In this document: in pieces, positions 18,515-58,541 of the stretch
Numbering within the stretch: position 1 is the stretch's first letter
Layout: each line of letters begins with the position of its first letter
Virus record (IMG/VR): IMGVR_UViG_3300018430_001101
Span: 1 to 64,000 of that record
Direction: 5' to 3' (one strand)
Source of the DNA: a virus
DNA: 64,000 nucleotides
Made by a program: the position numbers and the translations under genes
Notes under the pieces: generated by a model
Told to the model about the DNA's origin: nothing
The model's input: only the letters and a program-made list of their open reading frames with translations
Databases searched by the model: none

Positions 18515-18798
18515 GTTCGTCTCCTTTCTTTCTGCGCTGCCTGCCGGACATCCCCGGTGCCGCCGGGAACCTTCCATCCCCGGTGCCGGCCTTCCGCAGG
18601 CGCTTGTCTTTGGGTAGTGTATTAATCACTCTGAACCACCGTATTATCAAGCGGAAAATGTGGGATTCTGCGCAGGTTCGGGATGTTCTGCGTAATGCAC
18701 AAAATAGTCCAGCACAGACTGGCAGATAGTCACAGTCTTTGAACCACAACGTCGCTATCGTCACAGCCTGTGCCGGATGGAGCCGGAGCGCCGCACGG

Positions 18799-21700
18799 TC
18801 AGACGGCACCTTTTCCCGCTGCCCAGGCGATCCCTGAAAGCACGAAATAAACTATAGGCAAAGAAATCCCGTTGCCCCATAACTTGTACTCGGCGGCATC
18901 CGTGTGGGGATCGGCGAGCCATTTGCGGAGCTGCTTCTCCGTCTTCGGCTTCTTCCCGTTCATGGCGTTCCACGCGTCCCACACTCCCTTCCAGAACGCC
19001 ATTTCCTCCGGCGACGGATCCGGGTCTGCAAGGCCCGCGCACCACCAGTCCGGGAAGCCCTGGAGCCTCGCGCATTCGACCGGGGTGAGCCTGCGGACGA
19101 TGTACATGGGCTCCTCGTTCGGCATGTCGTTCAGGATCGGCGGGTCCTTGTAGTCCGTCGCCACAAGGGTGTTCGCCTGCTCCTTCGCGGGGTGCATGAA
19201 GAAGGAATTCTTGGATGTTGAGTAATGGCTGGCATCCTCCAGGGGTGCCGCCACGCAGTGCCGGTCCGCGGTATTGAGGGTGAACGCGACTTCCTCGTTG
19301 ATGCCGCTTCCCTGCGGGCCGTTCTTTTCCTTCCTCCCAACCATGGAACCCTGCAGCGAATAGGCAGGTTCCGCGGATTCAGCCGGTTCCACAGGCTCCA
19401 CAGGCGCGACGATGCAGATGCCCCCCTGGTTGCAGCAGGGATTACCTCCGCCCTGGTCAAGGGTCCGGCTCGTCTCCGCCTCGTAGAATCCTGCCTTCGG
19501 GTTGTCCGAAAGCATGGAGTGGGAACTCTTGCTGCACACGCCGAATGCCACCGGCTGGAACAGCGTCTGGTCATTGTGGGTGCCAAGTGTAGCAGATTTA
19601 TTGACCTGCCGGATCGGGCCTTTCCCTCCTCCGGGGCAGCCTCCACGGATCTTAAGGGTCACAGGCTCCGGCTCTGCCACAAGCGGCTGCGTGTTCCCGC
19701 CGGTTCCGTAGCGTGCAGTGACCGTGGGGCTGTCCTCCAGGGGGCCGTCATAGCGGCAGTCCTGCGGATGGTTGTCAAAGAGCATTGCCGCCGGGACTAC
19801 GCCCGCCCTCAGCGTAGGGGAGACTTCTTCCCCGTAGCCGATGCTCCGCGCCTTCGCGCTGTGTTCCGTGGAAAAGCCCGCTGCCTGGAGTACCTGTTCA
19901 CCGGATCCTTCAGCCAAAGCGTCGGGCGGAACCGCCGCAGGATGCAGGACGGCAGGGTGGTTGCCGTGGTCCTGCGCGACCAGGGTGCCCGCATGCCCCT
20001 CCGTGACGGTGATCCCGCTGCTCCCCTGGGGGTTCACGCACACTTCGGTCACACGGGATCCGCCTCCTGAACCGCCTGCGCTTACTCCACTTCCAGCGTC
20101 AGGCCGCCCGCCTGCCTCTCCAGCGCCTTTTTCAGCACCTCCGGCAGCTCCTTCCCACGCGCGGAAGCCCTGCGGAGTATACCCAGACACGCCTTCGGAC
20201 TCAAATAGTACTTCCGGGGCACTTCCTCCAGCAAAATCTGCGACAAGGTAGATCCTTGCGCGGCGCTGGGGGCAGGACCAGTATTGAGTGTCGAGAGTCC
20301 TGTAAGCCACGCTCCATCCGTCTCCCAGGTATACGTCCGCTTTAGGCCATCTGTAATTCTCAGGCGGAGGCACCTCGGCTCCTTCCTCCCTGACGCCGAT
20401 GACGGCTTCGAGGACGGCCTTGAAGTCCCTTCCCCCATTGGAGGAGAGGGCCCCAGTAACGTTTTCCCACACGCAGTATCTTGGGTATCTGCCATTTGTC
20501 GCCTCCCTCATTTCCCTGATGATCCGGATCGCCTCGAAGAACAGGTTTGACCTCTGTCCTTCATGGATGCCGGCCCGTTTGCCTGCTATGGAAAGATCCT
20601 GACAATTGTGCACTGTGATCCCGTCTGCAATATAGCTGTTATCCTCTTCTACTGTCAGGTTGTACACAAGCTTCGTATGATGTGTCGGGATCACTTTTCT
20701 CACCCGATACCATCCGTGCAGGTCGTCGGTAAGGTGGACCCGCTTCCCATTCCGTGTGATTTTTACTTCATAGCAGTCGTTCTGGTTGACCAGCCGTCCT
20801 TCTATTACCCCGGTTTTTCTGACATTATAGAGATAGACAGTTGTCGAATACCCCTGCACTTCCGCAAGAAGCCGGATGCTCTCGGCAAGCTTTTTGCTGA
20901 CCGTGCTGATCCTCCATGTTGTCTCTTTGCCCTTTACCTTGGACCCGTCAGAATCAATTAAACCGTTTAACAATGCCTGCCTGTATCCTTCCTGCATGCC
21001 GAAAACCCATCCCGGCATGGTTTTGCCGATTGCGTAACGACCGAAGTTATCCGTAAGCCATCCGCTCAGCACCTGGGAAACAAAAGAAAAACGCACGACA
21101 CCTCTGTCATGCGCAACGCAATATCTATCTGATATTTTCCCGACTATGCTTTTCAGTTCGTCTTCCTTATCTTCGGAATCACAGATGAAAACCTTCCCGT
21201 AAGTTTCTCCTTCCGGCCTGTTGCTTCTCTGTCCATTACATACCCACCCATCCCCGAGCCAGCGTCCCACAAAATAGAAGAAGTCTTCAGACAACGTCGG
21301 CATAGCCTTCTGCCTCCATGATCCTGAATACACTGGTGACGCAATCGGAAGACCCTCTACGGCATTGGGGACTCCCCAAAAACCACCTTCCATTTCTCCT
21401 GCAGGTATCCAGTTCCTCTCATCTGTCAGAATCAGTTGGTTTCCTCTTTTCCCGTTTCCAAGAGATGGGTAGTATTTTTTTACTCCGCAAGAATATATAG
21501 GATGGTTTGGCGTGCACTCCAAGCCATAGTGATTGCCTTTCAGTATCACGGTCTCTCCAGGCTTTGCGCCTGACGCAGTAACCTTCTTCCATCTGCCCTT
21601 ATGTGTGAGAACCTTTGTTCCGACTCCTATCTTCTCTATTGGAACATATCCCTCTTCTGTCAGCACCAGCGTCCCTGCCGGGAAGCAAGGCGAGCCAAAT

Positions 21701-21915
21701 GTTATGATGTCCACAGGCTCCAGTTCGGATCCTTTGAGCTTCGAAACATCCCCATAGTGCTTCACCTGCGGCAGCCGCCTGTGGGTGACCAGGATTGGGA
21801 ACGGCTCGATCTCGCTGGAAAAAACCGGCCTAATCCCGGCAAGGATGCCGCCTAAAGGAAAACCCCCGGAGCCGTCAAACAGGCTGCCGAGGGTCAGTGT
21901 TTTCTTTTCTGCCAT
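18799..21915 (-). CDS. DNA (cytosine-5)-methyltransferase with long variable region, interrupted by a LAGLIDADG intein
   Basis: Motif I LFDGSGG, motif IV split as GSP|intein|CQDLSIAGKRAG, ENV motif YCVWENV, C-terminal RRLTPVECARLQGFPDWW and GNGISLPIV. Confidence 0.9.
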   Translation of the reverse strand: MAEKKTLTLGSLFDGSGGFPLGGILAGIRPVFSSEIEPFPILVTHRRLPQVKHYGDVSKLKGSELEPVDIITFGSPCFPAGTLVLTEEGYVPIEKIGVGTKVLTHKGRWKKVTASGAKPGETVILKGNHYGLECTPNHPIYSCGVKKYYPSLGNGKRGNQLILTDERNWIPAGEMEGGFWGVPNAVEGLPIASPVYSGSWRQKAMPTLSEDFFYFVGRWLGDGWVCNGQRSNRPEGETYGKVFICDSEDKEDELKSIVGKISDRYCVAHDRGVVRFSFVSQVLSGWLTDNFGRYAIGKTMPGWVFGMQEGYRQALLNGLIDSDGSKVKGKETTWRISTVSKKLAESIRLLAEVQGYSTTVYLYNVRKTGVIEGRLVNQNDCYEVKITRNGKRVHLTDDLHGWYRVRKVIPTHHTKLVYNLTVEEDNSYIADGITVHNCQDLSIAGKRAGIHEGQRSNLFFEAIRIIREMREATNGRYPRYCVWENVTGALSSNGGRDFKAVLEAVIGVREEGAEVPPPENYRWPKADVYLGDGWSVAYRTLDTQYWSCPQRRARIYLVADFAGGSAPEVLFESEGVSGYTPQGFRAWEGAAGGAEKGAGEAGGRPDAGSGVSAGGSGGGSRVTEVCVNPQGSSGITVTEGHAGTLVAQDHGNHPAVLHPAAVPPDALAEGSGEQVLQAAGFSTEHSAKARSIGYGEEVSPTLRAGVVPAAMLFDNHPQDCRYDGPLEDSPTVTARYGTGGNTQPLVAEPEPVTLKIRGGCPGGGKGPIRQVNKSATLGTHNDQTLFQPVAFGVCSKSSHSMLSDNPKAGFYEAETSRTLDQGGGNPCCNQGGICIVAPVEPVEPAESAEPAYSLQGSMVGRKEKNGPQGSGINEEVAFTLNTADRHCVAAPLEDASHYSTSKNSFFMHPAKEQANTLVATDYKDPPILNDMPNEEPMYIVRRLTPVECARLQGFPDWWCAGLADPDPSPEEMAFWKGVWDAWNAMNGKKPKTEKQLRKWLADPHTDAAEYKLWGNGISLPIVYFVLSGIAWAAGKGAV
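20605..21687 (-). mobile_element. Intein (361 aa) in C5-MTase with LAGLIDADG motifs
   Basis: Begins CFPAGTLVLTEEG after ITFGSP; ends GITVHN followed by Cys that is the catalytic Cys of PCQ motif (junction verified at 20605-20607 = AAT Asn, then TGT). LAGLIDADG motifs FVGRWLGDGW and LLNGLIDSDGS. Confidence 0.8.
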
Positions 21916-25347: not shown

Positions 25348-26322
25348 TCACAGGTCCACGTTTTCCGAAATGCAGCAGGCCATGCCGTGCGCATTGCAGA
25401 ATGCCCTGATCCTGAGCTTCAGCACGTTGTCCTTCGTGTATTCCAGGAGGAACCCGCCCATGCCGTGGCTCACGCACCTCTTCATGTGGGACTGATACCA
25501 TTCGGACTGCTTCTTCTCCTGATTTCCGAACTTCCCGGTGCCTTTGTAGCTGGTGATGAGGGAGAAGACTTCCTCCTGGGTAACGCCGTCCACGCACCCG
25601 CAGGAACCGCTGCCGCCTTCTTCCACGATGAACGCGCCAGTAAAGCCCGCCGCCTTCGCTTTTGACAGCATCTTTTCAGCATTTCCCCTCACTGAGAAGG
25701 CTCCTGCCTGGACCCGGTAAACGCCGGCAGCCTGGAGGACCACGGCATTGATCCCTCCTGCCTCAGCTTCCTTCTGCCTGCGTTTTGCGTTCCCTTCCAC
25801 GCTGAAGGCGCCGAGCTGGACCTTGTACAGGGCCTTTCCTCCGTCATTGTCCATGAGCTTTCCGAGGAAGGAACTCCCGCCGTTCACCATGACATAGCCT
25901 CCGAGGGCTTTGATCCTGCCCAGGACGGACTTCACCGCGTTGTACATCGCGGAGGAAGGGTACTCCTCATAAACATCGAGGTTGTCGATCCACCAGCCGT
26001 CGAATCCCTGGGCTTTGACAGCCCTCGCCCTGTCCACGCACCAGTCTCTCGCGGCGGCCTTCCTGAGGTCCAGGTACCTTTCATGGGGCCAGTCATCAAG
26101 CTTTTTCAGGCAGTACGGCTTCAGGGCTTTGTAATACTCCCTCTCGTCAGACACGGATCCGCAGGAAAGGTATCCGAGCACGGTGTATCCCGATGCCTTC
26201 AGCGCTGCCACCTCCGCCTTCGTGTAATCCTCCGGCTCGATGGCAAGGAGCGTCCTGCCCTGCGCTTTCCCGAGTTTTGCTGCCGACACCTTCGTCGTCA
26301 GCGATACGATATACTTGTCCAT
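25348..26322 (-). CDS. Putative glycoside hydrolase (GH114-like TIM-barrel) with two SPOR domains
   Basis: N-terminal domain with GFDGWWIDNLDVYEEY (GH114-like motif, from memory); two SPOR-like repeats (YKVQLGAFSVEGNAKRR..., YRVQAGAFSVRGNAEKMLSKAKAAGF). Confidence 0.55.
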   Translation of the reverse strand: MDKYIVSLTTKVSAAKLGKAQGRTLLAIEPEDYTKAEVAALKASGYTVLGYLSCGSVSDEREYYKALKPYCLKKLDDWPHERYLDLRKAAARDWCVDRARAVKAQGFDGWWIDNLDVYEEYPSSAMYNAVKSVLGRIKALGGYVMVNGGSSFLGKLMDNDGGKALYKVQLGAFSVEGNAKRRQKEAEAGGINAVVLQAAGVYRVQAGAFSVRGNAEKMLSKAKAAGFTGAFIVEEGGSGSCGCVDGVTQEEVFSLITSYKGTGKFGNQEKKQSEWYQSHMKRCVSHGMGGFLLEYTKDNVLKLRIRAFCNAHGMACCISENVDL

Positions 26323-26377
26323 TTGAACCTCCTCTGCCCGGTTTCTATCCTGTGTTCCACTCCCGTCCGGCATCCGC

Positions 26378-26614
26378 CTAACAGATCCCTGCATTGCTTA
26401 ACACCTGCAAGGGCGGTACCCGGAGAGAAATACCGGGATCTGTCCCATATATCCCAGGGGATTCAGGAACCAGTGAAACATAGTCCGCAGTAATCCCGTA
26501 TTTCAGGAGGATATAAAGCAGTACTGCTACGCATGCGGCCAATATGATCAGCGCAAATATTGAAATGCCAGTGAGGACACAGCATTCTGCTTCGAAGGCA
26601 GCTGCCGGACTCAT
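26378..26614 (-). CDS. Small membrane protein (one TM; holin-like candidate)
   Basis: ISIFALIILAACVAVLLYILL hydrophobic helix. Confidence 0.35.
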   Translation of the reverse strand: MSPAAAFEAECCVLTGISIFALIILAACVAVLLYILLKYGITADYVSLVPESPGIYGTDPGISLRVPPLQVLSNAGIC

Positions 26615-26704
26615 TTTCCAAGTCCTTTCGCCCGTCCTTATGATTGATCCCCTGCTTCTGCACATGCCGCACCTCCTTCACATCCGCCCTTCTGCTGATG
26701 ATCT

Positions 26705-28432
26705 TCACTTCCTGAACGTCCTGCTCAGGTTCCCTTTGCTACAGGACAGCTTCATCGTCCCAGGCAGGCAGTCGATGTAAACATCCCCGTTTTCGTGGTT
26801 CCTTGCGACCACGGCTCCCACGGCTTCGAGGCGTTTCCTCGTAGTCCCGCGCCCGGACCGCTCCGCATGGTGGTAATTGCTGAAGGCCACACGAGGCCTG
26901 ACGGCCCTGCAGATGGTCTCGTTGCACGCATTCGCATCACCATGCCACTGGCACTTCATGATGTCCGCCTTAAGATCCTTCAAGCTCTTCACGAGGAGGT
27001 TATTCCCCTCGTTCTGCAAATCGCCAGCGGAGTGGTACACCCACCCGTTGAGCGTCACGCGCAGCACCACTGACTCGTTGTTGATGAAGTGATGGCTGTC
27101 GTGTTCCTTCAAAGAGGCGGCAGGGCACTGGTACACACACCTGAAATGCATGTTTCCGATGGAGAACTCCGTCCCCGCCTTGACGTAATGCCCGGCCGCC
27201 TTTTTATACTGGCTGCGGAGCGCGTTCCCGTAGGTCTTCTGGTATTTATCCACCTCAGCAGGATCGGGGACATAAATGTCCTTCACCCCGAACTCCCTGA
27301 CCATCGCGCTGGTGCCGCCGTAATGGTCTCCATGGGCGTGGCTGATGATGATGGCATCAAGCTTTCTCACGCCGAGCGCCTTCAGCTTCCTGATGACATT
27401 CGCCGACGACTTGTCCATCGCAGTGTCGATCAGCACCGCATGCTCGACAGTCTTATCATCATCACCGTACTCAATCAGCGCCGTGCAGTCCCCGTACTGG
27501 CTGGATTCACTGCCAGTATCAAAGAAGGCAAGCGCCGCGATCCTGATGCGGTGCGGTACGGCAGGATTCTGGTTATCCACAGTCTCCTGGTTATCCACAG
27601 CCTCCTGCACTGTCGGCGTCCCGGAAGATTCTGCGGGATACTTCGGGCGGATGTACCCGTGGATCGTCCTGCCTGCCCTCACGCGCCGGTGCACCCCGCC
27701 GTCCCGGTACTGGCCGGAAATGTTGTAAGTCCCATCAATGGCAAGCTCCGTGTGGTTGGGCGTCCCGGATCCGTAGAGCACGATGTCGCCGGCCTTGATT
27801 CCAGTGCTCCCGCTGTGCCAGGTGCCGAGCTTCTTCGCGTTGCTTTTCAGGCTTGAGCAGCCCGTGCTCCCGCGCCCGATCAGGTCGATGTAACCTGCCC
27901 GCCAGAAGCAGGAGATGACCGTCTCGGAGCAGAGGGAATCCTTATCCGTCCGCAGGCGGATGCCGCCCACAGCCTTCGCGTATTCGTTGAAATCGGCGAC
28001 GATATCCTTCCTCGCGGTCTTTGAGTCGAGGTATTTCCCCATGCAGCCCAGGACTTTCTGGAATCCCACGGGCTCCGGAGCGGTGCTGGTGGAGCCAGGC
28101 TCCACAGACGAACCGGTTCCTGAGGACGCGTTGGTTCCCGCAGATGAAGCCGGCACTGCGGAAGCCACAGCCGCCTTCATAATCTTCGCATTCGGGAATC
28201 CCGCCGCCCGGACCTGCTCCAGGCGCTTCTTCGCGTTGGCCCCGTTTGCAAACGCACCGCACTGCACCTTCCAGAAGAGGCCGTCCTTCACGCATGCCAC
28301 GGAGATGTCCTCCTTCAGCTTCCCGGACTTCCTGCGGCTCCTGACCGCCGCTTCCACTGCAGCCTTCATCTTCTGCGCGTTCGATTTAGACAGGTACGCG
28401 CCGACCTGCACCTTATACAGGGTGCTCATGCT
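26705..28432 (-). CDS. Multidomain hydrolase: 2x SPOR + papain-like (NlpC/P60- or CHAP-like) Cys/His domain + C-terminal MBL-fold (ComEC/Rec2-like) metallo-hydrolase domain
   Basis: SPOR repeats LYKVQVGAYLSKSNAQK and FWKVQCGAFANGANAKKRLEQVRAAGF; Cys (SLCSETVISCFWRAGY) and His (GTPNHTELAIDG) pair; MBL motif DAIIISHAHGDHYGG plus downstream His/Asp residues. Confidence 0.6.
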   Translation of the reverse strand, partial: SMSTLYKVQVGAYLSKSNAQKMKAAVEAAVRSRRKSGKLKEDISVACVKDGLFWKVQCGAFANGANAKKRLEQVRAAGFPNAKIMKAAVASAVPASSAGTNASSGTGSSVEPGSTSTAPEPVGFQKVLGCMGKYLDSKTARKDIVADFNEYAKAVGGIRLRTDKDSLCSETVISCFWRAGYIDLIGRGSTGCSSLKSNAKKLGTWHSGSTGIKAGDIVLYGSGTPNHTELAIDGTYNISGQYRDGGVHRRVRAGRTIHGYIRPKYPAESSGTPTVQEAVDNQETVDNQNPAVPHRIRIAALAFFDTGSESSQYGDCTALIEYGDDDKTVEHAVLIDTAMDKSSANVIRKLKALGVRKLDAIIISHAHGDHYGGTSAMVREFGVKDIYVPDPAEVDKYQKTYGNALRSQYKKAAGHYVKAGTEFSIGNMHFRCVYQCPAASLKEHDSHHFINNESVVLRVTLNGWVYHSAGDLQNEGNNLLVKSLKDLKADIMKCQWHGDANACNETICRAVRPRVAFSNYHHAERSGRGTTRKRLEAVGAVVARNHENGDVYIDCLPGTMKLSCSKGNLSRTFRK

Positions 28433-29925
28433 TTCACCTCCGTACACACGATCACGGCATTGACCTTCTTCTTCCTCGCCCTGGACGCTTCTGCCTGTGC
28501 CTCCGCTGCGTTCCCGAATGCTCCCAGGCGCACCTTCCACAGGCCGCCGTCCTTCACAGCCGATGCGTTGAATCCCGCCATACGCAGCTGTTCCACGCGC
28601 TTGTCCGCGTTCTTCTGCTTTGCAAAAGCACCGAACTGGACGGCATACACAGTTTTGGTCTGTCCTGCTGCACTGGCTCCATCTTCCGCCGCTCCGGAAT
28701 CGGATCCTGATGCACTGGAGGCACTGGATGCTGCGGAACTGGCAGGCGTGGTATGTGCGTACCTGTCGTAGTACGCCTGCCCGAAGGCAGCCCTGCGCTC
28801 CTTCACTTCCTTCCCCTGGTTGGCGGGCTTCTCATAGCCGGTCAGTACCGCGTCGGACGCTTCCCGCACGCTCGTGGCTTTCTCCAGCTTCTCCAGGACT
28901 CCGCTGTAGTTCCCCCGCAGTTCCAGGCACAGGAAGGAGAGCTGCATGTGCATGTCGTCGATGGGCACGGCCTTTCCGCCCGCGTATCCGCCTTTCGCGT
29001 AGTCCAGCAGGGCCTTCTTCCTCGTGTGGAACGTCCACTGGGCGAGGCCGTATCCCGCCCCGTCGTTCACGAAGTTCATATACGAGCCGTTGTCCACAGC
29101 GGCTGTGTATCCCTTGTCAGTCACCCCCAGGCGCTTTTCGAAGACGTTCTGCAGGTTGTTGGGACGCAGGGCGGACTCCGCATAGAGGTTCCCCATGATG
29201 CCGGCAACGGCATAAGGGCCCATCCCTTTCGCGGACAGGAATTCCCAGATGGCCTTCTCCCGGTCCGCTTCCTCGTTGCCAATCAGCGCGGCTGCGGCAG
29301 TGTTCGGTTCTTCCACAGGCCTGTCCGCATCCTCCCCGGCAGATCCTGCTGCAGCAGAACCATCTGGCTCAGCGGACCCGGCAGAACTCTTCGCAAGCTC
29401 CGCGTTCACTGCGTCCGCAAGCTTCCCCATGCGCCCATAGAGCCAGTCTCCCGGACACGATTTATTTGCAAACCACCGGTGGACTGTGAGCACCATCTCG
29501 CCGTCCTTCGGCTGGTAGGCGAGCGCCGTCTTTTTATCCCCGAACCAGATCAGCCGGTCCTTGCCGTACCTCCGGCAGATGTCCGTGCAGAGCGCCACAA
29601 GGGATGCCCACACCCTGCTGTTCATCGTGTACGGGGCCGACGTCCCGCTTGCGCACTCGATGGTGATGGCCCTGTTGTCGTTGTCCGCGGAAGAACTGCA
29701 CCACGACTGGTTCTTCTCGTCCACATACAGCCCGATCTCGCCGTCCGTCCCGATGCCATAGTTGGACGATGCCTGGTAAGAACTGCGGGCAAATAAACTG
29801 CCGCACTGCTTCGCGGTCAGCTGCCCGACCATGCAGTGCGGCGTGATCCGCGTCACCTTATATGCCCTCGCCCCCGAGTGGTTCGGGGAGGGGACTGATA
29901 CTGTTGCCAGCCTGCTGTTGCCCAT
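28426..29925 (-). CDS. Endolysin-like: N-acetylmuramoyl-L-alanine amidase (Amidase_2/PGRP) + phage-tail-lysozyme-like domain + 2x SPOR
   Basis: SPNHSGARAYKVTRITPHCMVGQ (amidase_2), GIMGNLYAESALRPN...GYGLAQWT (lysozyme-like), C-terminal SPOR repeats; GGAGGA SD. Confidence 0.75.
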   Translation of the reverse strand: MGNSRLATVSVPSPNHSGARAYKVTRITPHCMVGQLTAKQCGSLFARSSYQASSNYGIGTDGEIGLYVDEKNQSWCSSSADNDNRAITIECASGTSAPYTMNSRVWASLVALCTDICRRYGKDRLIWFGDKKTALAYQPKDGEMVLTVHRWFANKSCPGDWLYGRMGKLADAVNAELAKSSAGSAEPDGSAAAGSAGEDADRPVEEPNTAAAALIGNEEADREKAIWEFLSAKGMGPYAVAGIMGNLYAESALRPNNLQNVFEKRLGVTDKGYTAAVDNGSYMNFVNDGAGYGLAQWTFHTRKKALLDYAKGGYAGGKAVPIDDMHMQLSFLCLELRGNYSGVLEKLEKATSVREASDAVLTGYEKPANQGKEVKERRAAFGQAYYDRYAHTTPASSAASSASSASGSDSGAAEDGASAAGQTKTVYAVQFGAFAKQKNADKRVEQLRMAGFNASAVKDGGLWKVRLGAFGNAAEAQAEASRARKKKVNAVIVCTEVKA

Positions 29926-31289: not shown

Positions 31290-31523
31290 ATGAGCACTCT
31301 TGAACAGACCGTTTCAATGCTGGAAGCCCTCCCGGAAGAAGACCTGAAAGCCATCCACGATATCACGTATCGTTTTTACATCCACGCCCGCAATCCTTTT
31401 GCTCCCCTGACAAAAAAGCAGATCCTCCAGGATCTTGCAATCTCCAGGGAACAGGCAGCCAACGGGGAGTTCATGGATTTTGATGATGCGATCAGGGAGA
31501 TAAGGGAAAAATATGGTCTCTAA
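31290..31523 (+). CDS. Putative type II antitoxin (partner of ParE/RelE-like toxin)
   Basis: Small acidic protein (C-terminus MDFDDAIREIREKYGL) overlapping downstream toxin gene by 11 nt; SD GGAAGGTG before ATG 31290. Confidence 0.5.
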   Translation: MSTLEQTVSMLEALPEEDLKAIHDITYRFYIHARNPFAPLTKKQILQDLAISREQAANGEFMDFDDAIREIREKYGL

Positions 31524-31839
31524 AGTTGTTATCACCAGGCGCGCCCAGGAGCAGTTGGATGACTACGTCCTGTACGTCCTGCTCGAAAAAGGGAATGCCC
31601 AGGCTGCCGGAAGCATCCTTGATGACGCCGAGCGTACAAAGGCCTCCCTGCTGAATGTTGCGGAAAGCCTCCGCTATTGCGAGGACGAGGATTTAAAGGC
31701 CCTGGGATACAGGAAAATCCTCTTCATGTCCCACGATTACCTGTTCATCTACCGCGTCATTGGATCCACGGCTTACGTTGACGCCACATACCACCAGCTG
31801 CAGGACTATGAAAACCTGTTCAGGACAGAGGTCTTCTGA
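31513..31839 (+). CDS. ParE/RelE-family type II toxin
   Basis: 108 aa, pattern ...LGYRKILFMSHDYLFIYRV... typical of ParE/RelE fold; translational coupling with upstream antitoxin. Confidence 0.6.
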   Translation: MVSKVVITRRAQEQLDDYVLYVLLEKGNAQAAGSILDDAERTKASLLNVAESLRYCEDEDLKALGYRKILFMSHDYLFIYRVIGSTAYVDATYHQLQDYENLFRTEVF

Positions 31840-31895: not shown

Positions 31896-32129
31896 TCACC
31901 TGTGCATCTCCCTGTGCCGCCTCCTGTCCCACTCCATCGCCGCGAACACGGCAAGGAGAGTGACAAGGAAGACCACGGCGAACAGCGCCGGCACCCAGAA
32001 GGGCGCGAGGACGATGTTCCATCCCCAGCTTACCACGCCGCAGAGCTTGAGGACGACAAAGGCGACGCCGAGCAGTCCCAGGACGCCCACGCCGCCGCTT
32101 GCGCTTACCGTTGTTCTGTTTGCATTCAT
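31896..32129 (-). CDS. Small two-TM membrane protein with charged C-terminus (holin-like candidate)
   Basis: Two hydrophobic helices then DRRRHREMHR. Confidence 0.35.
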   Translation of the reverse strand: MNANRTTVSASGGVGVLGLLGVAFVVLKLCGVVSWGWNIVLAPFWVPALFAVVFLVTLLAVFAAMEWDRRRHREMHR

Positions 32130-32417: not shown

Positions 32418-35400
32418 TCATCCGGACTGCCCCTTGATATATCCCGCGATCATTCCGATTCCTTCGTACACCTTTGTGCTTTTGTACACCTGTGTTCCTC
32501 CGCCGGAAACCGTACCGCAATCCGTAGATGAAGCCGGGACTTCCACGACCAGGGCGGGTGCCTGCATGATGCCAAGGCTGTCCGCATACATCATGCCGGG
32601 ATCCGTGTCAGCAAAAATGACGCGGTACCTTATCCCCGCTTTGTCCAGCATCTTCTTTGCGGCCTTGCAGTTCGGGCATGTCCTGGTTGCGACGAGCACG
32701 GCTTTCTTCTGGTTCTCCGGGTAGTCCTTATCAGCCGGGATTCCGGCATCCCCGTTTTCCACAGTGGCGTGTCTGTCCGTAGCGGTGTGTCTGTCCACAG
32801 TGGAATTCCCAGCCACTGTTTCGGTCTCAGTCAGGTCTTCCAGGCTGACTTCTCCCCTGACCCTGACCTTAGCCATTACCTTGCCCTTCACCGTCCCCGT
32901 GACAGGCCCATCCAGCCTGTCTTCCGCATAGGTGACGCGCTCCCTGAACTCGGATGCCTTGCCGTCGTTCCAGTTACGGAGCGGCCGGTAGTATCCGGTG
33001 ATCCGGGAGTAGACTTCCGCTTCCCTGCCGCATTCCGGGCAGGTGAAATGCTTCCCGGGTATGTAGCCGTGGATCTCGCATACCGAATATGTCGGCGTCA
33101 GCGTGTAATACGGCAGGCGGAAGTTCTCGGCGATCTTGCGCACCAGGTCGCGCGCGGCCTTCCAGTCCCTCAGCTCCTGCCCGAGGAATCCGTGGAACAC
33201 GGTGCCGGAGGTGTAGAGGACCTGCATGTCGTCCTCCAGCTCCAGCGCGTCAAAGATGTCGTCGGTAAAACCGACCGGAAGGTGGGTGCTGTTCGTGTAG
33301 AACGGTGCTCCTCCATTCTTCTCCGCCGTGATGATGTCCGGGAATTCCTCCACGTCATGCTTCGCGAAGCGGTACGTCGTGGACTCGGCAGGCGTCGCCT
33401 CAAGGTTGTAAAGGTCCCCGTACTGCTCCTGATAGTCGGACAGGCGGTTCCTCATATGGTTCAGGACGTCCAGAGCGAACTGGTGTCCTTCCTTCCCCGT
33501 GATGTCCCCGTCCAGCCAGGTGGCATTCTCGATTGCCTCGTTCATGCCCACGATGCCGATGGTGGAGAAGTGGTTCTCGAAGGAGCCGAGGTACCGCTTC
33601 GTGTACGGGTAGAGGCCGCCTTCCATGAGGCCGGTGATGGTCCTGCGCTTGATCTTGAGCGACCTCGCCGCAAGGTCCATGTAGTGGTCGAGCATCACAT
33701 AGAAGTCTTCCTCGGAGCCTGACAGGTATGCCAGGCGCGGCAGGTTCAGGGTGACCACGCCGACGGAGCCGGTGCTTTCACCGGAGCCGAAGAAGCCGCC
33801 GCCCTTTTTACGCAGCTCGCGCAAGTCGAGGCGGAGGCGGCAGTTGTGGGTGACCAGCCCGCAGGGAAGGGTGAAGTAAGGCTCGCTGTCATCGAGCACT
33901 TCAAAGCAGTATCCGATATGGGAGCCATTTTCCACTTCGGAAATGCTCTGGATCCGGAACCACATGTAGCCGTCTTCTTTCACATACACGTCGCCATAGG
34001 ACTTCTGCCCGTTGTCAACGCTGTATGGCCTGATGGAGTATACAGGATTGTCAGAAAGTGTAGTGGTGCTGTCCCTGTCATCCATTGAAATCCTGGAAGG
34101 GATGCCCATCGACATCAGCATGGCCGCCATGGATTCCACAGCCTTCTTTGATGCCGAGTAGATCCTGTTCTTCGTCCCGCCGTCGGTCCTCCTGTATCCG
34201 TCCAGGATCCCTTCCCGGAATGCCAGGGATTTCCCGATGCACTTGGGGTTCAGTTCCTTGCTGAGGGCCTTGCCTGAGACGTATTCCTCGATCAGCCCCC
34301 TCAGCATCCGCGAGTACACGGTCACGTTGACGCAGTGGTTTTTCAGGTCATTGATTGCCACTTTGCCGCCATACCTCCCCTCAGCCAGCTTGATGATGTC
34401 TGCCATCAGGCCCGCCTTCGATGTACGGTTCAGGGAGAATGTAATTCCGTTAGCTTCCCGCAGGCTTCCATCACCCATGAACGCGCCAACCATCAGGCCA
34501 TCGTCATAGCTAAGCCCGGAACCGTCAAAGGGAACGACGTTGAAGGGAAGGTAATCGCCCGCCGTAAGCTCGTCTGTCCGCTTAATATCATTTCCCAAAA
34601 CAAGGTTTGCGTGGGAAGCGGACAGGACAACTTCATGCCCGTTCACAGTCCTGATCCTGTAAAACCTCTGGTTATCGTACCGATGGATCCTCGCCCTTTT
34701 CGTTTCCCCGTTCAGGATGACCTCATAAGTCTTTTCCCGCCTTCCGTTCCTCTCGCATGCCTTATACAGCGATTCGATGGGGCTGATGTGGAATTCACGT
34801 GCGTAGTCATCCCTGACAAGGACCTTCTCCTTCCCATGGAGCGGGCACATGGCCCTCACATCGGACGGCTTCATGTCGGAGCTGACGTAGTTGGAGTAAT
34901 ACGGCGTGCCGTACTTCGCCGTCATCTCGAACAGGAGCCTGTTGTTTTCCGTATCGCTCCAGTCGAAGTCGTTCGTGATGGAGTAGGTAGGGATCGGGTA
35001 CTGGAAGCCCCGCCCGTTGGCGTCCCCTTCGAGCATAATCTCGATGAACGCCTTATTGACCATGTCCATTTCCTTCTTGCAGTCGCCGTAGGTGAAATCC
35101 ATCTCCTTTCCGCCCACGATGGCGGGGAGGTCTTTCATGTCAGGCGGGCATGTCCAATCCAGCGTCACATTGGTAAACGGGGCCTGGCACTGTCCGGAGA
35201 TAAAAACCTCCCCGTCCGCGCTTCTGAAAACTGCCGTCCCGTTGTCGTCGTTCGGGCACCATACAATGCCCTTGTAGGGGATTTCGGTTCTCGTTGAGGG
35301 CTGGACGTTTTCTGTCTTGCGGATTTTTACGTAATTCGCTTTCCTGGTATGGTGCTTGAAAGAGGTATACCCGGCACGGAGGGCGATATGCTGGAGCGCG

Positions 35401-37013
35401 TCAGCGATATCGTCGTTGTCGTACTGCAGCATGAATTTCTCATCCCTCCCATCGTATCTTGACCAGGCGGCAAGGAATACCTCCGAGCAGTCCGCGCTCA
35501 TCCTCGTAAACTTCGGATGGATGCTCTTTTTCGTTGTACCCACAAGCTCGACGATCGCCCTTGCGCTGTCCCCGTAGAAACTGTACTTGTTCACAGGGCT
35601 TCCGAAGCCGCCAGTGAGTTCCTTCCTGGTGTACTTAAAGCCAAGGATGCCGGAAAGCTCCTCGATTTCTTCATTGCCTTCCCTGTTCGGGGACTTGTAA
35701 ATGCAGACTTTATGCACGCTCCCGCCTCTCATGTCGATACTGCCGTCGGTATATACAATTGCGGCGAAGGCAGCTTCTGCCTCCGTGATGCCCTTTTCCC
35801 TGGCGGTAATGCTGCTGCCATGGAACCTGACAGGAAGGTAATACGGCGTCTTCACGCCGAATATGTCCTCCGAACGGCGGATAACGTACTGGTCAAGGTT
35901 ATGCTTTTTGCAAAGCACCCTGTGGTCCGGGGTAACCGTCTGGCTGTATCCGCGCGCCCTGTACTGATGCAGCACTCCGTTATGTTCCTTTACAACGATC
36001 TCGTTAAGGGGGCACAGCTCAAGGGCGCCATTTTTCCAGGTGTAGATATTCTCCCCCTTCTTAAGGTCGTTGTAATGCTTCCAGCCTTCCTCGGTCAGGA
36101 TTTCAGTTGACGGCGGTACGCACCCCCATCTCGAAGGCGTGTTGACGCCGTAGATGAAGGACTGGATGCACTGCTTCACCTCCTGGTATGTCAGGTGGTC
36201 CGCCCTGACGAACGGGGCGAGGTAAGTGTCGAAGGACGAGAACGCCTGCGCCCCTGCCCACTCGTTCTGGAGGATCCCCAGGAAGTTGACCATCTGGTTG
36301 CAGAGCGTCGACAGGTGCTTTGCCGGGGCGGACGAGATCTTCCCGGGCACGCCGCCAAGCCCCTCCTGGATCAGCTGTTTCAGGCTCCATCCCGCGCAGT
36401 ACGGAGTCAGCATCGACAGGTCGTGCAGGTGGAGGAAGCACTGCCTGTGCGCCTGGGCGATGTCCTCGTCATAGACCTCGGACAGCCAGTAATTCGCCGT
36501 GACCGCCCCTGAGTTCGACAGGATCAGGCCGCCGACGCTCAGAGTGACGGTGGAGTTCTCCTTCACGCGCCAGTCCTTGTTCGCCCCTGTGTACCCCTCG
36601 ATCAGCTTTTTGTAGTCAAGGAGCGTCTTCTTCGCCTGCCGGGTCTTCCCATGCTGGCTGCGGTAGAGGATGTATGCCTTTGCCGTCTCCGGGTATCCCG
36701 ACTTCATCAGGGCCGCCTCGACCCTGTCCTGGATCTCTTCCACAGTGGGGATGGATTCCCGGCTTCCCCTATCAGTTCCTCCTGCAGGCATAGTGTCCAC
36801 AGTGGTTGTATCCGCATCGGGACCTGCAGTACCGTTGCCGCTTCCCTGCATCCCGCTGAGGAGCAGGATCACGATGGCTTCGGAGACGCCCTCCACATGT
36901 TCCGCATCGACCTCTCCCGATGCCCTGAATGCTTTTGCGACGGCATTCTCGATCTTCGACCTGTCAAAGTCCACGACCCTTCCGTCGCGCTTTTTTATCT
37001 TCCTGATGTCCAT
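32418..37013 (-). CDS. nrdD: Anaerobic ribonucleoside-triphosphate reductase (class III, NrdD) with ATP-cone, two LAGLIDADG inteins and C-terminal glutaredoxin/NrdH-like domain
   Basis: ATP-cone MDIRKIKKRDGRVVDFDRSKIENAVAKAF; NrdD core (GVNTPSRWG, CRLRLDLREL); zinc ribbon CEIHGY...CPECG; glycyl-radical motif RITGYYRPL; C-terminal CPNC redoxin domain. ORF-track 5' extension overlaps HNH gene, so start placed at ATG 37013. Confidence 0.85.
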   Translation of the reverse strand: MDIRKIKKRDGRVVDFDRSKIENAVAKAFRASGEVDAEHVEGVSEAIVILLLSGMQGSGNGTAGPDADTTTVDTMPAGGTDRGSRESIPTVEEIQDRVEAALMKSGYPETAKAYILYRSQHGKTRQAKKTLLDYKKLIEGYTGANKDWRVKENSTVTLSVGGLILSNSGAVTANYWLSEVYDEDIAQAHRQCFLHLHDLSMLTPYCAGWSLKQLIQEGLGGVPGKISSAPAKHLSTLCNQMVNFLGILQNEWAGAQAFSSFDTYLAPFVRADHLTYQEVKQCIQSFIYGVNTPSRWGCVPPSTEILTEEGWKHYNDLKKGENIYTWKNGALELCPLNEIVVKEHNGVLHQYRARGYSQTVTPDHRVLCKKHNLDQYVIRRSEDIFGVKTPYYLPVRFHGSSITAREKGITEAEAAFAAIVYTDGSIDMRGGSVHKVCIYKSPNREGNEEIEELSGILGFKYTRKELTGGFGSPVNKYSFYGDSARAIVELVGTTKKSIHPKFTRMSADCSEVFLAAWSRYDGRDEKFMLQYDNDDIADALQHIALRAGYTSFKHHTRKANYVKIRKTENVQPSTRTEIPYKGIVWCPNDDNGTAVFRSADGEVFISGQCQAPFTNVTLDWTCPPDMKDLPAIVGGKEMDFTYGDCKKEMDMVNKAFIEIMLEGDANGRGFQYPIPTYSITNDFDWSDTENNRLLFEMTAKYGTPYYSNYVSSDMKPSDVRAMCPLHGKEKVLVRDDYAREFHISPIESLYKACERNGRREKTYEVILNGETKRARIHRYDNQRFYRIRTVNGHEVVLSASHANLVLGNDIKRTDELTAGDYLPFNVVPFDGSGLSYDDGLMVGAFMGDGSLREANGITFSLNRTSKAGLMADIIKLAEGRYGGKVAINDLKNHCVNVTVYSRMLRGLIEEYVSGKALSKELNPKCIGKSLAFREGILDGYRRTDGGTKNRIYSASKKAVESMAAMLMSMGIPSRISMDDRDSTTTLSDNPVYSIRPYSVDNGQKSYGDVYVKEDGYMWFRIQSISEVENGSHIGYCFEVLDDSEPYFTLPCGLVTHNCRLRLDLRELRKKGGGFFGSGESTGSVGVVTLNLPRLAYLSGSEEDFYVMLDHYMDLAARSLKIKRRTITGLMEGGLYPYTKRYLGSFENHFSTIGIVGMNEAIENATWLDGDITGKEGHQFALDVLNHMRNRLSDYQEQYGDLYNLEATPAESTTYRFAKHDVEEFPDIITAEKNGGAPFYTNSTHLPVGFTDDIFDALELEDDMQVLYTSGTVFHGFLGQELRDWKAARDLVRKIAENFRLPYYTLTPTYSVCEIHGYIPGKHFTCPECGREAEVYSRITGYYRPLRNWNDGKASEFRERVTYAEDRLDGPVTGTVKGKVMAKVRVRGEVSLEDLTETETVAGNSTVDRHTATDRHATVENGDAGIPADKDYPENQKKAVLVATRTCPNCKAAKKMLDKAGIRYRVIFADTDPGMMYADSLGIMQAPALVVEVPASSTDCGTVSGGGTQVYKSTKVYEGIGMIAGYIKGQSG
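32421..32730 (-). other. Glutaredoxin/NrdH-like domain (CPNC active site) fused to C-terminus of NrdD
   Basis: KKAVLVATRTCPNCKAAKKMLDKAGIRYRVI...MQAPALVV after the glycyl-radical motif. Confidence 0.6.
33843..34847 (-). mobile_element. Intein 2 of NrdD (335 aa, LAGLIDADG)
   Basis: Begins CPLHGKEKVLV after DVRAM; ends CGLVTHN followed by CRLRLDL (Asn codon 33843-33845 verified). Motifs LMVGAFMGDGS and EGILDGYRRTDGG. Confidence 0.8.
35190..36122 (-). mobile_element. Intein 1 of NrdD (about 311 aa, LAGLIDADG), atypical C-terminal ...SGQ
   Basis: Begins CVPPSTEILTEEG after NTPSRWG; LAGLIDADG-like AAIVYTDGSID and LAAWSRYDGRD; host sequence resumes CQAPFTNVTLDW. No HN at C-terminus, so boundary approximate. 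Confidence 0.55.
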
Positions 37014-37183
37014 ATCTTCGTCTCCGTTTCTCACTCTGTCCCGCTTCTCCTGCTGCATTTCGCCCGTCCTGCTTCTCCTGCCGCGTTCCATCTGTCCCGC
37101 TTCTTCTGACCGAATCGGATCCGCTCTCACCGCTGCCACGTCGTCGGGATGCAGGTCGCAGGATGCAGGACGCAGCTGGGCCG

Positions 37184-37543
37184 TCAGTACCTGTACACGG
37201 GGTGCATGTCCTGCGCCCCCGTCTTCATGCTGTGGTGGGAATGGCAGAGCGCCTGCCAGTTGCCCTCGTCCCAGAAAAGCTCCGGGTCTCCGCGGTGCGG
37301 CACGATGTGGTCCACGTCGGTCGCCTTCACGTACTGTCCCTGCCGATAGCACTCCACGCACAGCGGATGGGCTTCAAGGTACCGCTTCCTGGCTTTCTGC
37401 CAGCGGCTCCCATAACCCCGCTTAGATGCAGAGCGGTTCTCTTCCGGGTGCAACTGCTTATGTTTCTCACAGTATCTCGTCCCAGCATCTACCAGTTCCG
37501 GGCATCCCTGATGGCGGCAGGGCACTCTCGGTTTCGTAGGCAT
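37184..37543 (-). CDS. HNH endonuclease
   Basis: CxxC pairs plus DVDHIVPHRGDPELFWDEGNWQALCHSHH (HNH motif). Confidence 0.8.
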   Translation of the reverse strand: MPTKPRVPCRHQGCPELVDAGTRYCEKHKQLHPEENRSASKRGYGSRWQKARKRYLEAHPLCVECYRQGQYVKATDVDHIVPHRGDPELFWDEGNWQALCHSHHSMKTGAQDMHPVYRY

Positions 37544-43111: not shown

Positions 43112-43442
43112 CTTCAATCTCTCCTGTGCATATCTGCTGCTCTGTATCCTCCTGCCCCGGCGTCTCAGCTCCTGTCCATCCCGGCATTCCCCCATCCACT
43201 TCACCAGCGGAAGTTAAAGAGGACGCCAGGGCATAAAAAATGCCGGGAGCGGCTTTGGCACCGCCCTCGGCAAATGGAAAAGGAGACTAAGCTATGGACT
43301 TCATCTTTGTGCGTTCCTGCGGAAGCTTTCGTTTGTGTTTCTGTGTTTGTCTTCCGCTTTCGCGCATTGTAATAATAGCACATTTTTTACTACGCTTTTT
43401 GAGCCGAAAAGTATCATCGAAACTGCCAAAAAGTATCATTTC

Positions 43443-58500: not shown

Positions 58501-58541
58501 CTTTTCTCTTTTTCTGGTGTAAAATGAGGGATTCATCTCTC

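Follow-up and report, generated by a model that had tools for sequence, protein, structure and literature searches.

In a stretch of phage DNA from the IMG/VR record IMGVR_UViG_3300018430_001101 (positions 1 to 64,000, hereafter called the window), one gene encodes a protein that joins a SPOR domain, a cysteine peptidase domain of the NlpC/P60-CHAP type and a hydrolase domain of the metallo-beta-lactamase (MBL) fold (Table 1). We consider this protein to be a catalytic module of the lysis cassette acting at the cell wall, with a probability of about 0.8. More tentatively, at something short of even odds, it would be an accessory lysin whose MBL module serves as a putative metallo-phosphoesterase on a wall-linked polymer. 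The gene is real, and the three domains, all modelled confidently by AF2, lie far beyond chance. The initial annotation had proposed a peptidoglycan-targeted fusion of a Cys/His peptidase with a ComEC-type MBL domain, and this is borne out by an invariant Cys167/His226 pair and a predicted MBL fold.

Table 1. Position of the target gene, its domains and the neighbouring genes in the window
Feature	Position	Strand	Basis
Target gene: SPOR + NlpC/P60-CHAP peptidase + MBL-fold hydrolase, 574 aa	26705..28429	-	ORF and domain searches
Single SPOR domain, residues 1-88	28166..28429	-	Pfam, 1x60 alignment, AF2
NlpC/P60-CHAP-type cysteine peptidase domain, residues 121-266	27632..28069	-	Homologues and structure
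MBL-fold hydrolase domain, residues 292-574, ComEC/Pce clade	26708..27556	-	Pfam, AF2, Foldseek, alignments
GH114-family glycoside hydrolase with inserted SPOR	25348..26394	-	Pfam Glyco_hydro_114 2.3e-17, SPOR 3.4e-13
Small ORF, 95 aa, one long hydrophobic segment, between target and GH114 gene	26378..26665	-	Hydropathy scan
Upstream endolysin, 499 aa: Amidase_2 + Phage_lysozyme2 + SPOR	28426..29925	-	Pfam; phrog_20388 'endolysin' 9.9e-140
Candidate holin, 77 aa, two transmembrane segments, charged C-terminus	31896..32129	-	Hydropathy scan

The gene and its neighbourhood

The target is a single long reading frame that ends in a stop codon at 26707-26705 and begins with an ATG at 28429, ahead of which stands the ribosome-binding site GGAGGTG. 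A span of 26705-28432 had been given initially, of which the stop end is right and the start end is 3 nt off. The GTG at 28540, taken as the start in a mechanical ORF list, falls inside the upstream endolysin gene, and the ATG is preferred. Within an ATGA, this start codon shares bases with the stop codon of the endolysin gene, an arrangement consistent with translational coupling of the endolysin and the target protein. No signal peptide was found in the target protein, where a beta-strand of the SPOR domain already begins at residue 3. An identical protein (P0001) was read on 6 contigs, and on 3 of them the gene and those around it are seen to follow the same order.

Downstream lies a GH114 glycoside hydrolase gene, for which the gene caller placed the start at 26322 (324 aa). 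The 95-aa ORF between it and the target has no match in Pfam or PHROG; it is called and conserved in the loci L001 and L002, and might, as a weak candidate, encode a membrane component or a holin-like protein. The candidate holin is found 2 kb upstream of the endolysin and matches a PHROG family of unknown function (phrog_1374, 2.8e-18). In PHROG, none of the small membrane ORFs of the window matched an annotated holin family, the only matches being to families of unknown function. The gene cluster is placed between the replication and packaging modules, with packaging ~19 kb away, and not behind the tail genes. Both this location and the lack of an annotated holin in the window speak against the accessory-lysin reading discussed below. 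Promoter and terminator counts from 23.5 to 32.5 kb were no better than those of shuffled sequence, and a tRNA scan found none.

At the DNA level, the ParB-methyltransferase gene was the only part of the 24-32 kb region with matches among 50,697 phage records, these being to Lachnospiraceae, Coprococcus and Agathobacter phages; the lysis genes had no match at all in these records. The putative hosts are gut or rumen Clostridia, a placement taken from MAG labels only.

Domain composition of the target protein

The N-terminal region has a Pfam SPOR match (PF05036) of 37.1 bits with a cut-off of 21. Two tandem SPOR domains had been assumed initially, but only one is present. In the AF2 model, residues 1-88 form one beta-alpha-beta-beta-alpha-beta unit of the RNP-like, ~75-residue SPOR fold (E3-12, H15-35, E45-49, E52-60, H63-75, E82-87; pLDDT 87-96), and residues 2-83 pair end to end with the 79-residue structure of the CwlC SPOR domain (1x60), with an insertion of ~10 residues behind helix 1. 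The strands YKVQVGAY and WKVQCGAF, which might be taken for the starts of two copies, are an internal pseudo-repeat within the single domain. SPOR domains are described in PMC6895207 as recognizing glycan denuded by amidase, and the SPOR domain of the target is a predicted peptidoglycan ("denuded glycan") binding module of this kind.

The middle domain conforms to the fold of the NlpC/P60-CHAP enzymes, papain-like wall peptidases of clan CA. Its identity was drawn from homologues and structure, because Pfam is silent on the target's own sequence, giving no match for this domain even at E<=1. CHAP was found by Pfam in 9 of 20 homologues. A search of the PDB sequences with a profile of the domain returned only insignificant matches (E>=0.47), and the alignment to CwlO still places the Cys and His correctly, with the invariant Cys167 and His226 lining up with those of that enzyme. 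Candidates for the third polar residue are Gln240, which is Asn in most relatives, and Ser238. The lack of a Pfam match and the presence of Gln where relatives have Asn are points against the proposed role.

The remaining half of the protein is an MBL-fold domain. [quoted passage not shown] Structure prediction followed by a Foldseek search had been suggested as a check in the initial annotation, and this recovered the MBL fold: there were 299 PDB matches at E<=1e-3, and 50 of 50 among the matches listed are MBL-fold proteins. The top match is the MBL domain of the competence protein ComEC (9ic4, E 1.7e-15, TM 0.72), and Pce (2bib, 1wra) is matched at E ~1e-13 with a TM of 0.62-0.64 and an identity of ~17%. 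By sequence, ComEC (9vc6, E 3e-13) is nearer than Pce (1e-7). Since ComEC is a DNase, this order counts against a wall polymer as the substrate. The ComEC model TIGR00361 matches only in part, over model positions 462-629 (the MBL part), with 61.2 bits (cut-off 190; E 5.5e-17).

The motif DAIIISHAHGDHYGG, which had been singled out initially, was located at residues 358-372. The five metal motifs of the target are D335; H364-x-H366-x-D368-H369; H446/N450; D470; and H496, within W495-H-G-D498. D335, H364, H366, D368, H369, H446, N450, D470 and H496 are all invariant in an alignment of 40 homologues, and the predicted binuclear-metal ligand set is complete. Since the MBL fold is predicted and the ligand set is whole, neither of the two outcomes named beforehand as contradicting the assignment, a missing MBL fold or gaps in the His/Asp set, was found.

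The fold alone allows several chemistries. Esterases, lactonases, sulfatases and beta-lactamases are all known among the enzymes with this fold, and the MBL module could accordingly cleave a bond in the wall that contains no phosphate, such as an ester (O-acetyl or other), a lactone or a beta-lactam-like amide. Models of B3 beta-lactamases match weakly in the N-terminal part, which points the same way. However, the beta-lactamase scores in NCBIfam are all far under their cut-offs (45.6 vs 100 for bla_class_B_core, 35.6 vs 240 for subclass B3) and cover only the HxHxDH region, so that a beta-lactamase was rejected, and ComEC and Pce, the characterised proteins nearest to the domain, each act as phosphodiesterases. 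We regard a non-phosphate substrate as improbable.

Least probable of all, with only a slight chance, is an Apyc1-like anti-defence role, in which the domain would hydrolyse cyclic nucleotides in the cytoplasm ahead of lysis, or else a binding module that has lost its catalytic activity. The protein would indeed be cytoplasmic until lysis, since it has no signal peptide, and many homologues have weak precomputed matches to PF23023. With 12-18 bits, these matches stay below the cut-off of 50, and an identification as Apyc1 was rejected; its structure 7u2r is matched at E 0.03, compared with 3e-13 for ComEC. A cytoplasmic role is also unlikely because the fusion to a wall-binding domain is obligatory, and the invariant metal ligands argue against a dead module.

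Relatives in uncultured Clostridia phages

Homologues of the target, all from phages of uncultured Clostridia, make up at least 286 clusters at 90% identity. In the representative search, the boundary of the subfamily to which its MBL domain belongs was drawn around 20 representative clusters at E<=1e-30, beyond which there is a gap from 1e-34 to 1e-24. The motif WH[GS]D is present in every member having that region, where generic relatives have HHGS. The subfamily also differs in charge, its MBL domain having a median pI of 8.7 (basic) vs 5.5 (acidic) in generic relatives. A basic domain suits the anionic wall; DNA fits equally, so that charge does not discriminate between the two substrates.

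The domain order of the target was initially called unusual, and it proves to be recurrent: among the best 120 homologous clusters, 14 have the order SPOR-NlpC-MBL. Other architectures among these 120 are SPOR-MBL (54), NlpC-CW_7-MBL (19) and SPOR-MBL-GH114 (16), along with fusions containing GH25. Nearly always in this tally, the MBL protein carries a wall-binding domain. Across the subfamily, the partner domains are all wall-binding or wall-hydrolysing, and none is DNA-binding.

In every relative inspected, the MBL gene or domain is found within a lysis cassette. In addition, 7 of 7 cassettes inspected encode a GH114 glycosidase, either in a neighbouring gene or fused to the MBL protein. The wall-binding type, either SPOR or CW_7, agrees with that of the neighbouring endolysin wherever the endolysin has one. 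For example, L009 encodes, in order and as separate genes, a holin, Amidase_2/SPOR, SPOR/NlpC, SPOR/MBL and GH114/SPOR, and the target protein corresponds to a fusion of two such genes, SPOR-NlpC and SPOR-MBL. The order in L004 is holin, amidase/SPOR, SPOR/MBL and GH114/SPOR, while in L005 an amidase/SPOR gene is followed by a SPOR-MBL-GH114 fusion. In L090, a holin gene is followed by GH25/CHAP/CW_7/MBL, the sole endolysin-like gene called there, and by GH114. In L092 and L007, an MBL protein of the CW_7 type shares the cassette with a GH25 gene, which in L007 itself bears CW_7.

The holin gene is adjacent to or near the MBL gene in L004, L009, L090 and L092. This proximity bears on the alternative that the target is a virion-associated (tail) lysin, used for wall penetration at infection and not for lysis. 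We consider it distinctly improbable, given also the overlap of the target's start with the endolysin stop, the distance to the packaging genes in the window, and the absence of tail or structural domains from the target in Pfam and PHROG.

Wall polymer or DNA as the possible substrate

In line with the modular endolysins of phages of Gram-positive hosts, the target combines a CHAP/NlpC-P60 peptidase with SPOR (CW_7 in relatives), lies beside the endolysin, with the holin adjacent or near in relatives, and has no signal peptide. The part that sets it apart is the MBL module, for which two characterised relatives offer a guide. The MBL domain of ComEC and Pce are each other's closest structural relatives (PMC12455585). 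Pce hydrolyses a teichoic-acid phosphodiester and is composed of an MBL catalytic module and a cell-wall-binding module (PMC4929436).

The MBL domain of ComEC is the closest relative of the target by sequence and structure, and both would have extracytoplasmic centres of the phosphodiesterase type. H364, H366, D368, H369, D470 and H496 of the target map one-to-one on H598, D600, D602, H603, D700 and H726 of ComEC, of which H598, D600, D602, H603 and D700 have been validated by mutation (PMC12455585). The target nevertheless differs in having HxHxDH, as does Pce, in place of the HxDxDH of the M. glycerini ComEC, in carrying an extra EHDxHHF segment and in being basic instead of acidic. It also has neither the competence channel (PF03772) nor the OB fold (DUF4131), and it forms a separate subfamily.

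The main rival to a wall phosphoesterase is a ComEC-like DNase tethered to wall debris. Such an enzyme would degrade host or extracellular DNA at lysis, either lowering viscosity or dissolving a matrix of eDNA and cationic polysaccharide, with GH114 cutting the polysaccharide so that virions escape. The galactosamine-rich exopolysaccharides cleaved by characterised GH114 enzymes include Pel, which binds eDNA. The constancy of GH114 in the cassettes inspected, the basic MBL domain and the closeness to ComEC in all three comparisons (9vc6, 9ic4 and the partial TIGR00361 match) are in keeping with this reading, and for the ComEC domain both endo- and exonuclease activity, dependent on Mn2+, have been demonstrated (PMC12455585). 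However, the two residues proposed as DNA contacts in ComEC, H725 and S728 (PMC12455585), are swapped for Trp and Asp in the target (W495 and D498, HHGS becoming WHGD), and both are invariant in the subfamily alignment. DNA binding by the ComEC MBL domain alone was undetectable, the OB fold being required (PMC12455585), and no subfamily architecture includes a DNA-binding domain. In addition, an active DNase would be expected to build up in the cytoplasm beside replicating phage DNA, because the target has no signal peptide. We judge a DNase to be somewhat less likely than a wall phosphoesterase, and give a slight preference to a wall polymer as the substrate of the MBL module. Among the activities initially suggested (nuclease, lactonase or hydrolase of a wall substituent), the choice narrows to an activity of the phosphoesterase type exerted at the wall, and nothing points to a lactonase.

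Pce (CbpE) of Streptococcus pneumoniae provides the closest parallel for such a wall enzyme. In both proteins, an MBL domain of the same clade is joined to a non-covalent cell-wall-binding module, of a type shared in each system with other enzymes, e.g. amidases. Both have HxHxDH and an Asp two residues past the His of motif V (HHHD in Pce, WHGD in the target). Pce differs in being an enzyme of the host that is secreted, having a signal peptide as well as choline-binding repeats, whereas the target is a phage protein with neither, Pfam finding no choline-binding repeats; the target uses SPOR instead (CW_7 in relatives) and adds the NlpC/P60 peptidase.

A wall phosphoesterase would fit into lysis as follows. 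Once the holin has opened the membrane, the SPOR domain would dock the target on glycan strands from which the amidase has removed the peptides, and the NlpC/P60-CHAP peptidase would cleave stem peptides. Two metal ions in the MBL domain might then activate water for phosphoester hydrolysis in an anionic polymer attached to the wall. The polymer could be a secondary wall polysaccharide that resembles teichoic acid or is linked by phosphodiesters; alternatively, the bond could belong to one of its phosphorylated substituents, as with the phosphorylcholine released by Pce. GH114 may cut the glycan portion of the same polymer, so that the enzymes would jointly strip the non-peptidoglycan layers of the wall and complete lysis and virion release.

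Extended to the subfamily, this suggests an unrecognised class of lysis enzymes in phages of rumen and gut Clostridia, a proposal that we consider possible and put forward with some reserve. Here, an MBL metallo-phosphodiesterase and GH114 would detach or depolymerise a phosphodiester-linked wall glycopolymer. Together with an amidase and an NlpC/P60 endopeptidase, they would make up a group of as many as four enzymes with a shared wall-binding domain, SPOR steering the later enzymes to amidase-stripped glycan. The conservation and repeated fusion of the MBL module as a component of the lysis cassette, in at least 286 clusters, imply a non-peptidoglycan substrate that has to be removed for lysis or escape. 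If glycopolymer removal by MBL and GH114 is true, it would be a Gram-positive counterpart of the principle known from LysB of mycobacteriophages and would supply a new module for engineered lysins. LysB is likewise an extra enzyme, and the shared feature is probably an attack on a non-peptidoglycan wall layer, but it is an alpha/beta-hydrolase esterase with a fold unrelated to that of the MBL domain. Identifying the substrate would shed light on the little-known polymers in the wall or matrix of Lachnospiraceae and other Clostridia (Eubacteriales) from rumen and gut, and widen the functional range of the ComEC/Pce clade; MBL and GH114 would also enlarge the toolbox for anti-biofilm enzymes.

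The surveyed catalogues of endolysins list amidases, peptidases, glycosidases and transglycosylases, with no mention of an MBL-fold module, and we found no description of one in phage lysins in the literature searched, endolysin surveys included. The coupling of an MBL domain to SPOR in a phage had been thought undescribed; within that literature, this holds for the MBL part, while SPOR domains in phage endolysins are already on record (e.g. PMC11674121). MBL genes next to endolysin genes do occur in cultured phages. For example, Clostridium phage c-st has two annotated genes for ComEC-type MBL proteins, CST106 and CST107, directly downstream of the endolysin gene on the same strand, and gp37 of Geobacillus phage GBSV1 is likewise a ComEC-type MBL gene, adjacent to the endolysin gene and convergent with it. 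These proteins have 23-24% identity to the target, carry no SPOR, CW_7 or NlpC and fall outside its subfamily; CST106 has a weak match to Big_5, below the cut-off.

Gene and domain organization of the protein

At this locus the minus strand contains one long ORF with its stop end at 26705. The mechanical ORF list begins it with a GTG at 28540, which was rejected because this codon falls within the upstream gene. On inspection of the sequence, the start is the ATG at 28429, which is preceded on its 5' side by GGAGGTG and overlaps the upstream gene's stop codon in an ATGA. The gene placed by the initial annotation at 26705–28432 is real, with its upper coordinate off by 3 nt. Among the contigs read, six encode a protein identical to its product (P0001), and the neighbors are in unchanged order at the three places shown, which come from JGI and Logan assemblies.

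The anatomy first proposed, SPOR-SPOR-(NlpC/P60 or CHAP-like)-MBL (metallo-beta-lactamase), was largely correct except for the SPOR count. Pfam detects SPOR and Lactamase_B/Lactamase_B_2 in the protein, and an AlphaFold2 model built from a 40-sequence alignment (mean pLDDT 85.7) has three compact domains joined by two disordered Ser/Thr/Pro/Glu-rich linkers, at residues 89–118 and 267–291. There is only one SPOR domain: residues 2–83 align with the entire 79-residue SPOR structure of CwlC (1x60), and the apparent pair is an internal pseudo-repeat. For the peptidase domain of P0001 itself Pfam gave no match; of 20 homologues, nine match CHAP and five match NLPC_P60. Cys167 and His226 are invariant across the family and match the catalytic Cys/His pair of CwlO in the alignment. 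A candidate third catalytic residue would be Gln240 here and, in most relatives, the Asn of "ISGNY". The motif quoted for the MBL domain, DAIIISHAHGDHYGG, is present at residues 358–372. Two objections to an MBL assignment, a missing fold and an incomplete set of metal ligands, were checked and neither holds, since the fold is present and D335, H364, H366, D368, H369, H446, D470 and H496 are invariant in 40 homologues. The protein belongs to the MBL superfamily, the SPOR family and the NlpC/P60-CHAP clan.

Features of the window and domains of P0001
Feature	Position	Strand	Length (aa)	Remarks
Terminase large subunit	4766–7486	-	906	Hint module and LAGLIDADG_3
Amidoligase-family protein	17423–18577	-		phrog_2443, 8.9e-31
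C-5 cytosine DNA methyltransferase	18799–21915	-	1038	interrupted
GH114-SPOR	25348–26394	-		SPOR at residues ~189–256
Holin candidate	26378–26665	-	95	one long hydrophobic segment; no family match
P0001	26705–28429	-	574	SPOR/NlpC/P60-CHAP/MBL
P0001, SPOR	residues 1–88			single; beta-alpha-beta-beta-alpha-beta topology
P0001, NlpC/P60-CHAP peptidase	residues 121–266			pLDDT 94 when modelled alone
P0001, MBL fold	residues 292–574			AlphaFold2 model, Pfam
ParE-toxin-like gene and partner	~31290–31839	+		weak Pfam match
Holin candidate	31896–32129	-	77	two transmembrane segments, charged C-terminus; phrog_1374 (unknown function)
NrdD anaerobic ribonucleotide reductase	32418–37361	-	1647	NRDD match in three stretches
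MazF-like growth-inhibitor domain protein	42389–43204	-		phrog_1936, 3.4e-16
Low-GC end	58000–64000			GC falls from ~0.57 to 0.44–0.49 at 58–62 kb
Only large plus-strand gene	61763–63679	+		metalloprotease and transcription-regulator PHROG matches

A distinct MBL subfamily

A word-indexed search found at least 286 clusters. When the MBL domain alone was used in a full HMMER scan, 20 representative clusters scored at E<=1e-30; after them came a gap from 1e-34 to 1e-24, and then the large body of ordinary ComEC-type and stand-alone MBL proteins. Because of this gap, the domain is assigned to a subfamily of its own, with the signature SH[AG]HGDH / EHDxHHF[VI]NNxS / WH[GS]D, where the generic relatives have HPHxDHIGG / LNNxS / KVGHHGSxTS instead.

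When architectures were tallied by phmmer over the best 120 clusters, without a GH25 probe, the commonest was SPOR-MBL (54), followed by NlpC-CW_7-MBL (19), SPOR-MBL-GH114 (16) and the window type, SPOR-NlpC-MBL (14). About 10 more were CW_7-MBL or "MBL only", including proteins of 800–850 aa with an N-terminal GH25, a domain taken from the precomputed Pfam column and from Pfam on one long homologue (P0100). The rest were GH114-NlpC-CW_7-MBL (3), SPOR-NlpC-MBL-GH114 (2) and NlpC-SPOR-MBL (1). This type of peptidase domain is also found in ordinary lysins of two domains, SPOR-NlpC and NlpC-CW_7. Metagenomes contain the family in abundance, under names that are all generic ("MBL fold metallo-hydrolase", "SPOR domain-containing protein"). 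In reference genomes, close relatives were confined to MAGs from rumen and gut; their labels were Lachnospiraceae, Eubacteriales, Blautia or Butyrivibrio, apart from a few with other labels.

The lysis cassette and its relatives

The large genes of the window are all phage genes and, apart from one near its end, all lie on the minus strand. In the order of transcription, DNA polymerase, helicase, primase and NrdD precede the endolysin and the P0001 gene, which are followed by a 95-aa membrane ORF, GH114-SPOR and a ParB-methyltransferase, with terminase, portal and protease further downstream. The endolysin has Amidase_2, Phage_lysozyme2 and SPOR domains and matches phrog_20388 "endolysin" at 1e-139. 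No annotated holin family was recognized within the window, where the 77- and 95-aa ORFs are the sole holin candidates, and sequence inspection found no signal peptide in any of its three SPOR-bearing enzymes. In GH114-SPOR, the SPOR domain sits in the middle of the catalytic domain, inserted rather than appended.

In all cassettes inspected, the context is uniform, with the MBL module within the lysis cassette. For example, an NCBI MAG labelled Eubacteriales (L009) has a tail gene, a holin (Phage_holin_4_1) and then four consecutive SPOR-tagged enzymes, Amidase_2/SPOR, SPOR/NlpC, SPOR/MBL and GH114/SPOR; P0001 is a fusion of the second and third. Locus L004 has holin, amidase/SPOR, SPOR/MBL and GH114/SPOR, and L005 has amidase/SPOR and a SPOR-MBL-GH114 fusion. 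GH114/CW_7/MBL adjoins GH25/CW_7 in L007. In L090, a holin is followed by GH25/CHAP/CW_7/MBL, the sole endolysin-like gene called there, and GH114, and L092 has GH114, NlpC/CW_7/MBL, a 131-aa ORF, holin_Dp1 and GH25. GH114 accompanies the MBL module, as neighbor or fusion, in all seven cassettes inspected. Wherever the neighboring endolysin carries a wall-binding domain, that of the MBL protein is of the same type: SPOR with SPOR in the window, L004, L005 and L009, and CW_7 with CW_7 in L007. The feature is not unique to this phage and is a conserved part of Clostridia phage lysis cassettes; that P0001 is instead a virion-associated lysin is quite improbable.

A looser form of the endolysin-MBL arrangement is found in cultured phages. 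In Clostridium phage c-st (record 95057–98500), two paralogous MBL genes, CST107 and CST106, directly follow CST108, which is annotated as endolysin, and in Geobacillus phage GBSV1 an MBL-DUF3006 pair abuts the endolysin. CST106 has a weak Big_5 match; CST108 has Pfam Glucosaminidase and SH3_3, although its note says amidase-like.

Possible function of the MBL module

The start of the P0001 gene overlaps the endolysin stop, and its product combines a domain that binds peptidoglycan, a papain-like wall peptidase in which Cys and His are conserved, and an MBL domain with intact metal ligands. The MBL module is likely a functioning catalytic component of the lysis machinery, and an inactive or anti-defence module is highly improbable. 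The ligands align residue for residue with H598, D600, D602, H603 and D700 of the Moorella glycerini ComEC domain, which were validated by mutation (PMC12455585), and H496 aligns with H726.

Homology predicts a binuclear phosphoesterase but does not say which substrate, because the ComEC MBL domain, a two-Mn2+ DNase, and Pce, a two-Zn2+ teichoic-acid phosphorylcholine esterase (PMC4929436), are noted in the ComEC paper (PMC12455585) to be each other's closest structural relatives. The main alternative is a wall-tethered DNase, which might attack, together with GH114, a matrix made up of eDNA and cationic polysaccharide. In its favor, the domain is closer by sequence to ComEC (9vc6, 3e-13) than to Pce (1e-7), and the order by structure is the same. 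Five observations tilt toward a substrate attached to the wall. All partner domains in the subfamily bind or cut the wall and none binds DNA, whereas no DNA affinity could be detected for the ComEC MBL domain by itself, which depends on an OB fold (PMC12455585). In the subfamily alignment, the proposed DNA contacts H725 and S728 of ComEC are replaced by invariant Trp495 and Asp498, and Pce shares the Asp at the S728 position. The HxHxDH motif is that of Pce, where M. glycerini ComEC has HxDxDH. The architecture repeats the logic by which Pce and the pneumococcal amidase share one type of wall-binding module. Finally, an unregulated DNase without a signal peptide would share the cytoplasm with phage DNA while it replicates. 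A wall-polymer phosphoesterase is our tentative reading (probability roughly 0.4); a DNase comes next in probability, and some other hydrolytic chemistry is improbable. The domain is basic (median pI 8.7 against 5.5 in generic relatives), a charge that suits any polyanion and does not discriminate among substrates.

Identity with known families was also considered. ComEC was rejected (no channel domain or OB fold, TIGR00361 score 61 against a cut-off of 190, different signature residues), as were Pce orthology (no choline-binding repeats, ~17% identity) and beta-lactamase and Apyc1, both of which score below their cut-offs.

SPOR domains are described in one report as recognizing glycan strands that amidases have stripped of peptides (PMC6895207), which suggests an order of events for the wall-polymer phosphoesterase. 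The holin would open the membrane and the amidase would denude the glycan; the SPOR-tagged enzymes could then dock, and the peptidase, MBL and GH114 would finish off the peptide cross-links and a non-peptidoglycan glycopolymer. P0001 would work like a modular Gram-positive phage lysin with a Pce-like module added.

SPOR domains are already known in phage endolysins. We found no description in the literature, large endolysin surveys included, of a module with the MBL fold in endolysins or lysis cassettes of phages, although coverage was incomplete and this is absence of evidence. P0001 can be regarded as a modular phage lysin that carries an undescribed catalytic module and has GH114 as a recurring partner, and the MBL protein as an apparently uncharacterized component of Clostridia phage lysis cassettes.

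Other genes in the window

In the terminase large subunit, the Hint module (residues 173–252) and LAGLIDADG_3 (404–456) lie between the ATPase (62–167) and nuclease (608–892) domains, and tblastn against known phage terminases covers 58% in two pieces; the insert is probably an intein carrying a homing endonuclease. NrdD, which probably contains at least one intein, has an Intein_splicing match at 891–1173, an ATP-cone and a C-terminal glutaredoxin/thioredoxin-like domain. The C-5 cytosine DNA methyltransferase, interrupted by Hint_2 (76–117), Hom_end/LAGLIDADG (312–389) and Intein_splicing (128–437), would bring the intein-bearing genes of this phage to three.

On the opposite strand, the contig identical to the window (L001) shows a ParE-toxin-like gene with a small upstream partner, located after the NrdD region and before the lysis genes; the two resemble a toxin-antitoxin pair that was inserted into the phage. 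The MazF-like and amidoligase-family genes are located among replication and late genes. The low-GC end, with its plus-strand gene, may represent the lysogeny or regulatory end of the phage, or else the point where it joins other DNA.
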